Part shown: one piece after another, positions 29,597 to 32,000 of the stretch
Layout: the number at the start of each line of letters is the position of its first letter
Numbering within the stretch: position 1 is the stretch's first letter
Assembly (NCBI GenBank): GCA_964426185.1
Contig: CAYRPF010000006.1
Span: forward strand, 30,001 to 62,000
Direction of reading: 5' to 3'
Origin: an uncultured archaeon
GTDB taxonomy: Archaea; Asgardarchaeota; Lokiarchaeia; Sigyniarchaeales; Promethearchaeaceae
Length of the DNA: 32,000 nt
Position numbers and translations under genes: made by a program
The notes under the pieces: generated by a model
What the model was told of the DNA's origin: nothing
The model's input: only the letters and a program-made list of their open reading frames with translations
Databases searched by the model: none

Positions 29597-32000
29597 ATGG
29601 TTCAATCAATACCACCCAAAAATAACGACATTTTATTTTCATTGCAGAAAATATTCCCCCGACATGTAAAAAATGCAAGGGGATCACTGAAACCCTTTAA
29701 TCCCGATAAAATGGTTGAAAGCTTAAATAAAGAAACAGGATTAGATTGGAATGAATGCATCGAAGTGGTCAAAGATTCACTCAAAAGAATTACAATTTTA
29801 GGACTGGTTACCATCCAAACTTCCATGATTCGTGAAATTATGTGTTTAGACTTGTTAGCTCGAGGCCATGAACGAGAGCGTAATATTTATGCCAAACTGA
29901 TTAATCGGAGTGTCATCAAATTTCAGTTAGATCCTAAATTTATGGAAAAATACAAAGGAAAACAACCAGAGTGGGGTCCTTTAGGCTATATTACCTACAA
30001 ACGGACTTATGCACGTTATATTGTAGCTGAAAACCGCACCGAGGAATTCTATGAAACTGTTCAGCGTGTAGTCGAAGGTGTTTATAGCATTCAGAAAGAA
30101 CATTGTTACAATTTAGGTCTACCTTGGGATCCAGAAAAAGCTCAGAAATCTGCTCAGCGCATGTTTGAAAAGATATGGAATTTTCGATTTTTACCTCCAG
30201 GTCGAGGTTTATGGATGATGGGTACCGAATTCATTGATAAACATGGTTCCATGGCTTTAAATAACTGCGGTTTTGTATCCACGGAAGATATTGTTATTAA
30301 AAAGACCAAAGCTTTCGAATGGTTGATGGATGCACTGATGCTGGGTGTGGGGGTAGGATTTGACACTAAGGGTGCTGGAAAACTCGTGATCCAAAATCCT
30401 AAGAATGAGACATTTTTATTTGAGGTCCCAGATAGTCGAGAAGGTTGGGTTCAAGCCCTTAGACATTTATTAACCGCTTATTTTGAGGGTGAAGCAATGC
30501 CAATTTTCGACTTTTCCAAAGTCCGTCCAGCTGGTACTCCTATCCGTGGATTCGGAGGTGTAGCTTCTGGACCTGAACCATTGAAGGAAATGCTGGATAG
30601 TCAAAAAGAATTATTAGATAAACGTATTGGAAAAACTCTTTCATCTGTAGATATAGTAGATATGATGAATTTAATCGGAAAATGTGTGGTGGCTGGAAAT
30701 GTGCGCAGATCTGCAGAAATTGCCTTAGGAGAAATTGATGATGAAGAGTATATCAGTTGCAAACAGGATCAAAAAGCTTTATATCATCACCGATGGGCTT
30801 CTAACAACAGTATCATCGGCCGTAAGGGAATGAATTACGATAAAATTATTGATTCTATAGCAAAAAATGGAGAACCTGGAATTATTTGGTTGGAAAACTC
30901 ACAAGCATTCAGTAGAATGGGAAGAGCTCCTGATTATAAAGATAAAAAAGCTGTTGGTGTGAACCCATGTGGAGAACAGACTTTGGAATCATTTGAACTT
31001 TGCTGCTTAGTTGAAACATTTCCTTCTTTGCATGAATCCTATGAAGAATTTGAAGAAACATTAAAATATGCCTATCTTTATGCAAAATCCGTAACCTTAG
31101 TTAATGTACACTGGAATGAGACTAATGCGGTAATGGGAAAAAACAGAAGGATTGGAACCAGTCAAACTGGAATTATTGACGCATTCGCTCGTCATGGCCG
31201 TCGTACTATCTTGGAGTGGTCGGATAAGGGTTATCAATTTTTACGTAAATTGGATGAGCAATATTCAGATTTCTTCTGCGTGCCTCAATCGATCAAAATT
31301 ACAACGGTAAAACCAAGTGGCACTGTTAGTTTACTGCCCGGTGTGGCACCTGGGATTCATTACCCTCATTCTGAGTACTATATCCGCCGTATTCGGATTT
31401 CTAAAGAGTCTACTTTGATAGACCTTTTAAGAGAAGCGAATTATCACATAGAACCCGATGCATATTCAGATAATAGTTTTGTTGTTGAATTTCCAATTCA
31501 TGAGAAGAATTTTCTTCGAGCAAAAAAGGATGTTTCAATTTGGGAGCAATTGGCTAATGCCATAGATTATCAACATTATTGGAGCGATAATCAAGTTTCT
31601 ATTACCGTTACATTCAAAAAAGAAGAAGTCAAAGATCTCAAATATGCCTTACAATTCGTGGAAGATAAAGTAAAAGGATTAAGCTTGCTTCCACTCACTG
31701 ATTCGGGTTATAAACAAATGCCATATGAGGAGATTACTAAAGAAGAATTTGAAAAGCGAGTTGCAAAAATAAAACCCATTAAAACATGGATTACTCATGA
31801 AAAGTCCGTTGGAACAATTTATTGCGATGGCGACAGCTGCCATCAAGTAGACGAAGCAGCAGTTCTCCGAGAAATGGAGAACCTTTTAAATGAACGAATT
31901 CCTGCGGTAGAAAATATTTCTTCCGAATCTTTTGGATTTAATGTAAAAAATGGAGTAATTCTTGAAGTTGGGCTCTACAATAAACACCTTAAAGCATTAC
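29597..32000 (+). CDS. nrdJ: Class II adenosylcobalamin-dependent ribonucleoside-triphosphate reductase (monomeric NrdJm/RTPR type) with an N-terminal ATP cone and a C-terminal extension; truncated by the window end
   Basis: Manual translation, open to the edge and absent from the ORF track: WGPLGYITYKRTYAR, FLPPGRGLWMMG, LNNCGF, LMLGVGVGFD, DSREGW, GFGGVASGPEPL, CVVAGNVRRSAEI, RWASNNS, NPCGEQ (30962-30979), ELCCLVE, TTVKPSGTVSLL, WSDNQVSITV, YKQMPYEEI, YCDGDSC (Cys pair 31823-31840). Confidence 0.95.
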   Translation, partial: MVQSIPPKNNDILFSLQKIFPRHVKNARGSLKPFNPDKMVESLNKETGLDWNECIEVVKDSLKRITILGLVTIQTSMIREIMCLDLLARGHERERNIYAKLINRSVIKFQLDPKFMEKYKGKQPEWGPLGYITYKRTYARYIVAENRTEEFYETVQRVVEGVYSIQKEHCYNLGLPWDPEKAQKSAQRMFEKIWNFRFLPPGRGLWMMGTEFIDKHGSMALNNCGFVSTEDIVIKKTKAFEWLMDALMLGVGVGFDTKGAGKLVIQNPKNETFLFEVPDSREGWVQALRHLLTAYFEGEAMPIFDFSKVRPAGTPIRGFGGVASGPEPLKEMLDSQKELLDKRIGKTLSSVDIVDMMNLIGKCVVAGNVRRSAEIALGEIDDEEYISCKQDQKALYHHRWASNNSIIGRKGMNYDKIIDSIAKNGEPGIIWLENSQAFSRMGRAPDYKDKKAVGVNPCGEQTLESFELCCLVETFPSLHESYEEFEETLKYAYLYAKSVTLVNVHWNETNAVMGKNRRIGTSQTGIIDAFARHGRRTILEWSDKGYQFLRKLDEQYSDFFCVPQSIKITTVKPSGTVSLLPGVAPGIHYPHSEYYIRRIRISKESTLIDLLREANYHIEPDAYSDNSFVVEFPIHEKNFLRAKKDVSIWEQLANAIDYQHYWSDNQVSITVTFKKEEVKDLKYALQFVEDKVKGLSLLPLTDSGYKQMPYEEITKEEFEKRVAKIKPIKTWITHEKSVGTIYCDGDSCHQVDEAAVLREMENLLNERIPAVENISSESFGFNVKNGVILEVGLYNKHLKAL

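Follow-up and report, generated by a model that had tools for sequence, protein, structure and literature searches.

The C-terminal shuttle cysteines of ribonucleotide reductases (RNRs) are thought to require a free, flexible end. In the ribonucleoside-triphosphate reductase (RTPR) of Lactobacillus leichmannii (structure 1l1l), a CxxxxC pair is carried on a disordered C-terminal segment and the protein ends three residues past the pair, without an ATP-cone. This disordered C-terminus has the role of re-reduction and, according to the main text of a survey of RNR extensions, most monomeric class II RNRs end in a short C-terminus, the long C-termini of class II being made of IscU-like and zinc-finger domains (Burnim et al. 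2022, PMC9669993). These extensions are Cys-rich, metal-binding domains that fold after the barrel, belong mostly to dimeric enzymes and are tied to re-reduction or oligomerisation (PMC5704485; PMC9669993). Neither "LRR" nor "leucine" occurs in the main text of the survey. An RNR with an extension of another kind is described here from a window of 32,000 nucleotides, the whole stretch of DNA that was analysed (positions 30,001 to 62,000 of the forward strand of contig CAYRPF010000006.1, NCBI GenBank assembly GCA_964426185.1), of an uncultured archaeon of the Promethearchaeaceae (Asgardarchaeota; Lokiarchaeia; Sigyniarchaeales). A single gene at the end of the window encodes a protein of three parts: a divergent ATP-cone, an intact adenosylcobalamin (AdoCbl)-type RTPR, or NrdJm, and a self-contained, capped domain of three leucine-rich repeats (LRRs). 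The RNR-LRR protein is a genuine RTPR whose C-terminal domain is apparently undescribed; full-text searches of the literature gave no mention of an RNR-LRR fusion, whether in Asgard archaea or in Lokiarchaeum ossiferum, nor of the locus tag.

The fusion gene starts with an ATG at position 29597 of the + strand and occupies 29597..32000, running past the window end. The codons of its CDGDSC motif stand at 31823-31840, and no stop interrupts the frame from there up to the last complete codon (31999). The initial annotation, made from the letters of the window alone, had read this open frame as a class II RNR that continues into a probable LRR domain. On the contig, the open reading frame (ORF) does extend for 66 further codons, to a TAA at window-equivalent 32198-32200 (200 bases past the end), and no early stop precedes the repeats. 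The product is 867 amino acids long, of which 119 follow the second cysteine of CDGDSC. The 53 tail residues visible in the window form, as had been supposed, the helix and hairpin of an LRR N-cap and the start of a first repeat, while the next 66 codons supply LRR2, LRR3 and a C-cap, with the downstream LxxLxLxxNxLxxLP repeats and the Pfam LRR matches that had been anticipated. The N-cap (aa 749-787, 31841..31957, +) comprises a helix at about aa 752-765, an "IP" turn and the first strand of an FGF...G hairpin, as judged from homologous N-caps and from the AlphaFold2 (AF2) model (helix 754-764, strand 779-784). LRR1 (aa 788-810) has its start at 31958..32000 (+). Past the window follow LRR2 (aa 811-833), LRR3 (aa 834-847), the helix of the C-cap (aa 848-861) and a final strand (aa 864-867). 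In this repeat region, Pfam LRR_1 matches tail residues 62-80 and LRR_4 residues 62-98.

The last 119 amino acids are predicted to fold as a complete capped mini-LRR domain. Searched alone against Pfam, the tail matches LRR_4 (26.7 bits, cut-off 27, E 6e-6), LRR_8 (24.8 bits, cut-off 27) and LRR_1 (20.8 bits, cut-off 20.6), with E-values up to 3e-4, and also LRR_14; the scores lie near or just below the cut-offs because the domain has only three repeats, tandem units of the LxxLxLxx(N/C)xL type. It also matches the LRR regions of the XopAC, XopAE and XopL models of NCBIfam (E 3e-10 to 9e-7) and, among solved structures, LRR proteins ranging from those of Leptospira (LIC12759, E 5e-14) to SHOC2 (E ~3e-9). 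Such matches lie far outside what chance would produce. The predicted local distance difference test (pLDDT) reaches 83-92 for aa 750-867 in the full-length AF2 model, and 82-95 from the cap helix on in a model of the tail alone, which displays a helix, a hairpin, three strand-helix turns, a C-cap helix and a final strand. The structure prediction called for at the outset thus gave a confident LRR model, and a Foldseek search of the PDB with the tail has nothing but LRR proteins among its top matches, led by the C. tepidum Roco LRR (query TM-score, TMq, 0.65-0.67; root-mean-square deviation 2.4 Å over ~120 columns). Pfam, NCBIfam and the alignment revealed neither a zinc-finger motif of the CxxC type nor a zinc-finger or IscU-like family in the tail, whose only cysteines besides the shuttle pair, C819 and C863, are not invariant. 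Whereas the long class II extensions mentioned above bind metal, this one is an LRR solenoid devoid of a zinc-finger motif.

The junction between enzyme and LRR is short. A flexible tether (aa 726-742, 31772..31822, +) connects the catalytic body to the redox-shuttle pair C743-DGDS-C748 (31823..31840, +), which is read directly from the codons, and the LRR fold begins about three residues past C748. In the full-length model disorder (pLDDT < 50) covers tether residues 730-741 and the pair is drawn as a small hairpin beside the LRR; in the tail-only model the pair and its flanks are disordered, and the pair is thus carried on a disordered segment of ~20 residues. Because a folded 119-residue LRR follows the pair, the shuttle cysteines occupy an internal loop instead of a free end. 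A redox pair at the free extreme C-terminus is a trait of the family that this protein lacks; its membership in the RTPR family is unaffected.

The enzyme body (aa 110-725, 29924..31771, +) is that of a monomeric class II RNR. The whole protein scores 419.6 bits against the NCBIfam equivalog TIGR02505 (adenosylcobalamin-dependent ribonucleoside-triphosphate reductase; cut-off 340.05), and far under the cut-offs of the dimeric NrdJ models. Pfam identifies PF17975 (RNR alpha, 111 bits) and PF21995 (RNR-II_ins_dom, 60.8 bits, cut-off 27), the latter being the loop-1 insertion domain that substitutes for a dimer partner. Among solved structures, the L. leichmannii RTPR 1l1l is the only enzyme matched (E 6e-116). 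In the alignment, C224, N456, C458, E460 and C469 correspond to C119, N406, C408, E410 and C419 of 1l1l, which designates C458 as the thiyl-radical cysteine, C224 and C469 as the active-site pair, and N456 and E460 as part of the NPCGE finger loop. These five residues are invariant across 57 homologues, in which C743 is also invariant and C748 nearly so; the spacing of the latter two is that of C731 and C736 in the L. leichmannii enzyme. The catalytic machinery is thus intact and, by family membership, the enzyme would be of the AdoCbl type and would act on NTP substrates. It resembles the L. leichmannii RTPR in family, insertion domain, catalytic residues and position of the CxxxxC pair on a disordered segment, and differs from it in possessing a ~100-residue ATP-cone-like domain and the 119-residue LRR at its two ends.

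As residue 110 aligns with residue 6 of 1l1l, the first ~109 amino acids are extra relative to this RTPR. The domain they contain (aa 14-101, 29636..29899, +) was announced as an ATP-cone by the initial annotation, which described an ATP cone-NrdJm-LRR fusion. The NrdJm and LRR parts of that description stand, while the cone is a divergent one: PF03477 gives 15.8 bits (E 0.02), under the Pfam gathering cut-off of 25.8. Orthologues of the RNR in the sister family carry PF03477, the N-terminal region is matched by ATP-cones that relatives encode in other ORFs, and the AF2 model shows a β-hairpin followed by helices (pLDDT 70-89). The N-terminal ~100 residues are therefore likely to be homologous to ATP-cones, with putative nucleotide binding. 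To note, many orthologues, LRR-fused or not, bear the NCBI name "fused protease/ribonucleoside-triphosphate reductase". No protease domain was detected in the RNR-LRR protein by Pfam or NCBIfam, and the name looks like a family label transferred from elsewhere.

The fusion is genuine and has been inherited vertically. An artefact of assembly or sequencing, such as a lost stop or a chimeric join in one metagenome-assembled genome (MAG), might be suspected since the MAG of the window is in 155 contigs; this explanation is refuted by independent contigs and by fused relatives, and retains next to no credence. Support across the junction, one of the checks that had been recommended, comes from Logan contigs X1, X4 and X5 of three other metagenome studies, which span it with 0-2 base differences and no indels, and the stop codon is covered by contigs X2 and X4. 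Among the 40 genomes searched for the fusion in relatives, it is present at full length in both other genomes of the window's genus, the gene being split over two contig ends in one of them (G002). A second genus of the family is represented by two genomes, each of which has the fusion as well. A large protein database adds nine further 90%-identity clusters with the tail (845-890 residues), drawn from several sources. The carriers include two closed, single-contig genomes, those of Ca. Harpocratesius repetitus, of the window's genus (867 residues), and of Ca. Lokiarchaeum ossiferum B-35 (UYP46645.1, 868 residues). The latter protein is annotated as a "hypothetical protein", and the public names of the fused forms do not mention LRRs. 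The only short match in the tail search, P0147 (98 residues), is a contig-edge fragment of a fused RNR.

In most relatives, the RNR ends 2-12 residues past the CxxxxC pair. A stop after CDGDSC in reads or relatives, which the initial annotation had named as evidence of a misassembly or a lost stop, does not occur in the window's genus, whereas several close relatives do end shortly past the pair. A maximum-likelihood (ML) tree built from the RNR core divides the fused forms into three groups, and the unfused RNR of Prometheoarchaeum is the strongly supported sister of the fused P0160. The best ML tree unites the fused forms, Prometheoarchaeum and P0167 in a single clade with weak support, and a clade of fused forms only is rejected (approximately unbiased test, p-AU 0.0007). 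In Prometheoarchaeum the tail has 12 residues (QIIPEKKLIKKD or QIISETELIKED), which match residues 1-12 of the P0160 tail (QIISEADFIKEL), that is, the start of the LRR cap helix. The best cross-genus match of a tail is the tail of the orthologous RNR (83 bits, versus 50 for the next LRR). From the tree and these matches it is concluded that one old fusion at a fixed junction was followed by a truncation in Prometheoarchaeum; P0167 has probably lost its tail likewise. No LRR remnant was found by tblastn downstream of the unfused Prometheoarchaeum-type genes, where the next gene lies within ~70-200 bases. In one incomplete MAG (L007, G012:C166), a stop or frameshift breaks the RNR frame ~150 bases before the gene end, just before the tether, and the Cys pair and a 12-residue stub are read in a different frame; either the sequence contains an error or the gene is damaged.

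No recent donor of the tail is apparent, since among the non-RNR paralogues of the four genomes covered (G000, G001, G010, G011) even the best does not exceed 36% identity. The closest paralogue in the window's own genome (36% identity) is a 295-residue protein (G000:C21:35873-36760, L024:937-1824, +) with N-terminal membrane helices and a CPxC...CxxC zinc-ribbon, which ends in a capped three-repeat mini-LRR. A second gene with such an end was identified in L. ossiferum (G010 C1:3732302-3733086, L031:3-494 and 491-787); it is split by an apparent frameshift, so that the upstream frame encodes the cap helix and a 98-residue ORF the remainder, from the hairpin through the repeats to the C-cap. 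Free-standing ORFs of ~130 residues were also considered as donors and discarded: two are start-less fragments and the other is the end of a larger gene, set off by a frameshift. No donor was identified.

A search of representative proteins with the tail gave 19,277 matches at E <= 0.001, many of them covering nearly the whole tail, N-cap included. It is uninformative on the distribution of the fusion, being dominated by multi-repeat LRR proteins, while the protein that represents the RNR cluster at 50% identity is evidently one without the tail. The LRR relatives read share an acidic helix followed by an "IP.V" turn and an "FGF...G.I..L.L" hairpin, then 23-residue repeats in varying number and a "W..L...GC.I" C-cap. 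The RNR tail is one complete unit of this capped architecture, with its three 23-residue repeats, and is kept in 11 sequences. The capped LRR proteins of Lokiarchaeia and other prokaryotes thus possess the same two caps; they differ in that an RNR-like enzyme domain is found in none of the nine read individually among the 150 matches listed. The resemblance of the N-cap to those of Lokiarchaeia LRR proteins, claimed initially, is correct insofar as homologous N-caps occur in many LRR proteins, including at least one of the Promethearchaeota; the genome itself is not LRR-rich, with about five ORFs matching LRR_8. Some close relatives of the module are located behind TIR-like domains with an FFISHK motif (P0047, P0072, P0137). 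P0137 comes from a Promethearchaeota MAG, where its annotation is "TIR domain-containing protein". The arrangement of the three proteins is reminiscent of immune-type TIR-LRR proteins. With the LRRs of C. tepidum Roco (5il7, 6hlu), the Leptospira LIC proteins (4u09, 4u08) and SHOC2, the tail shares the α/β solenoid and the 23-residue LxxLxLxxNxLxxLP repeat. Those proteins have 10-20 repeats forming a large concave binding surface and belong to a GTPase, a kinase or a surface protein, whereas the RNR tail has three repeats and caps and is attached to a metabolic enzyme.

Eleven distinct tails are available. They measure 116-121 residues, with a single one-residue indel in their alignment, a mean pairwise identity of 46% and a minimum of 26%. 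Cap and LRR structural positions are conserved, and E753, E761, P769, G780, F781 and G786 are invariant in the fused forms. Ratios of non-synonymous to synonymous rates (dN/dS) are unusable because synonymous sites are saturated (proportion of synonymous differences, pS, 0.65-0.79), and constraint was judged from the closest pair only, in which the proportion of non-synonymous differences (pN) is 0.25 in the tail and 0.06 in the core, with a pS of 0.75 in both. These substitution patterns indicate that the tail is under purifying selection in Harpocratesius, Lokiarchaeum and a third lineage.

The best explanation of these data, with a probability of roughly 0.6, is a vertically kept RTPR-LRR fusion in which the enzyme works and the LRR would serve as a protein-binding adaptor. 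Being conserved with all its catalytic residues, the fused enzyme is presumably active. The CDGDSC pair would form the tip of a flexible internal loop that enters the active site, dragging the 13-kDa LRR behind it. The LRR would remain outside catalysis, as an accessory adaptor acting in trans, and would hold a reductant, a regulator or an anchoring partner beside the shuttle cysteines. As it adjoins these cysteines, its most likely ligand would be a thioredoxin-type reductant or a regulatory or localising partner; as it has been lost in sister lineages, it would tune or localise the synthesis of deoxynucleoside triphosphates (dNTPs) without being required for it. An adaptor is favoured because the capped three-repeat module also ends other proteins and because no residues of the RNR body track the tail. 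Several observations weigh against this explanation. The tail has been lost at least once, probably twice; it evolves ~4 times faster than the core at non-synonymous sites, is only 31-42% identical between genera and, in the alignment of the eleven tails, shows no strikingly conserved patch among its surface positions. No thioredoxin gene adjoins the RNR-LRR gene, and no conserved operon partner was found in the downstream ~1.5 kb of the fused loci. Genus g3 (L029 G004:C17, L030 G009:C84) and P0234 have an unrelated, charged, low-complexity extension of ~55 residues after a CTTD(T/A)C pair; the C-terminus of this RNR clade is therefore permissive and has acquired extensions more than once, and the C-terminus of the fused forms may simply be permissive too. 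Ligand binding, full-length expression and activity are putative, deduced from sequences and models.

One rival is a tolerated passenger, a small LRR gene or module fused by accident to a permissive C-terminus and having little or no function. The losses, the unrelated extension in g3 and P0234 and the fast evolution of the tail all fit such a module. Yet, with synonymous sites saturated, the eleven tails have kept an open frame, their length and the structural residues of repeats and caps, pN is well under pS in the closest pair and the AF2 model is confident, while 119 unconstrained AT-rich codons would be expected to gather stops and frameshifts. A passenger is improbable. An LRR acting within its own protein is slightly more probable, though still unlikely. 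By analogy, this intramolecular regulator would fold back on the RNR body and gate the Cys pair or substrate access, perhaps together with the ATP-cone. The LRRs of Roco proteins and LRRK2 fold back on the enzymatic domains of their own protein, and a Roco LRR is the best structural match of the tail. The full-length model places the pair as a hairpin beside the LRR and, since the latter starts just three residues after C748, it would move with any movement of the pair. Against this, no position of the body is conserved in the fused forms and changed in both tail-losing lineages; the search for positions that co-vary with the tail gave none that was convincing, only four conservative differences, and the tether is predicted to be disordered. 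A further proposal makes of the LRR a sensor or docking arm that would render re-reduction conditional on a bound protein, which might be viral, a small GTPase or a factor of the cell cycle; in this general form it is a long shot. Its specific form, in which recognition of a viral or cell-cycle protein would switch re-reduction of the enzyme off or on and link the dNTP supply to defence or replication timing, is highly improbable. LRRs are common sensor modules, and relatives of this one are fused to TIR domains, once in Promethearchaeota. On the other hand, the gene is a chromosomal, vertically inherited housekeeping RNR, no variable surface pattern of the arms-race type was demonstrated, and no defence gene was seen among the neighbours read (sufBD/sufC, clpB), no dedicated scan for defence genes (PADLOC) having been made.

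The adaptor explanation and its rivals can be approached experimentally. A conserved, natural RNR with a 13-kDa folded domain three residues past its shuttle pair offers a direct test of tail freedom and reductant access. Ca. Lokiarchaeum ossiferum, which has the fused gene, and Ca. Prometheoarchaeum syntrophicum, which lacks it, are both in culture and form a natural plus/minus pair. Asgard archaea are unusually LRR-rich, and almost all of these proteins have no assigned function (bioRxiv 10.64898/2026.10.28.762692). An LRR carried by an enzyme whose assay is well defined offers rare access to the ligands of such domains. If the sensor or docking-arm proposal were true, a housekeeping dNTP enzyme of the archaea related to eukaryotes would be switched by protein recognition, beyond nucleotides alone, and a first function would be assigned to an Asgard LRR domain.

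The RNR-LRR gene is preceded by sufBD/sufC, as judged from translations, and followed by clpB. Elsewhere in the genome, a 712-residue ORF (G000:C15:39125-41263, L027:133-2271, +) has only a weak match to anaerobic RNR (Pfam NRDD, 33.5 bits; TIGR02487, 30 bits, cut-off 326). Its product could be class III-like and very divergent, or else some other protein of the glycyl-radical type. The RNR-LRR protein therefore cannot be called the only RNR of the genome. A PF02867 search of this genome is uninformative on the RNR count, as it returned nothing, not even the RNR-LRR gene.

Many RNR orthologues hold one to three inteins, in ORFs of 1100-1666 residues, whereas the gene of the window is free of them. 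Examples are G013:C205:43013-46819, G017:C238:7473-12377, G019:C119:1267-6045 and G021:C25:41430-45161, as well as P0163, P0166, P0171 and P0256. The insertion points lie behind residue ~372, at residue ~458/459 next to the catalytic cysteine of NPCGE and, in G019, also near aa 553-576. Their Pfam matches comprise intein splicing domains together with HNH or LAGLIDADG endonuclease domains.

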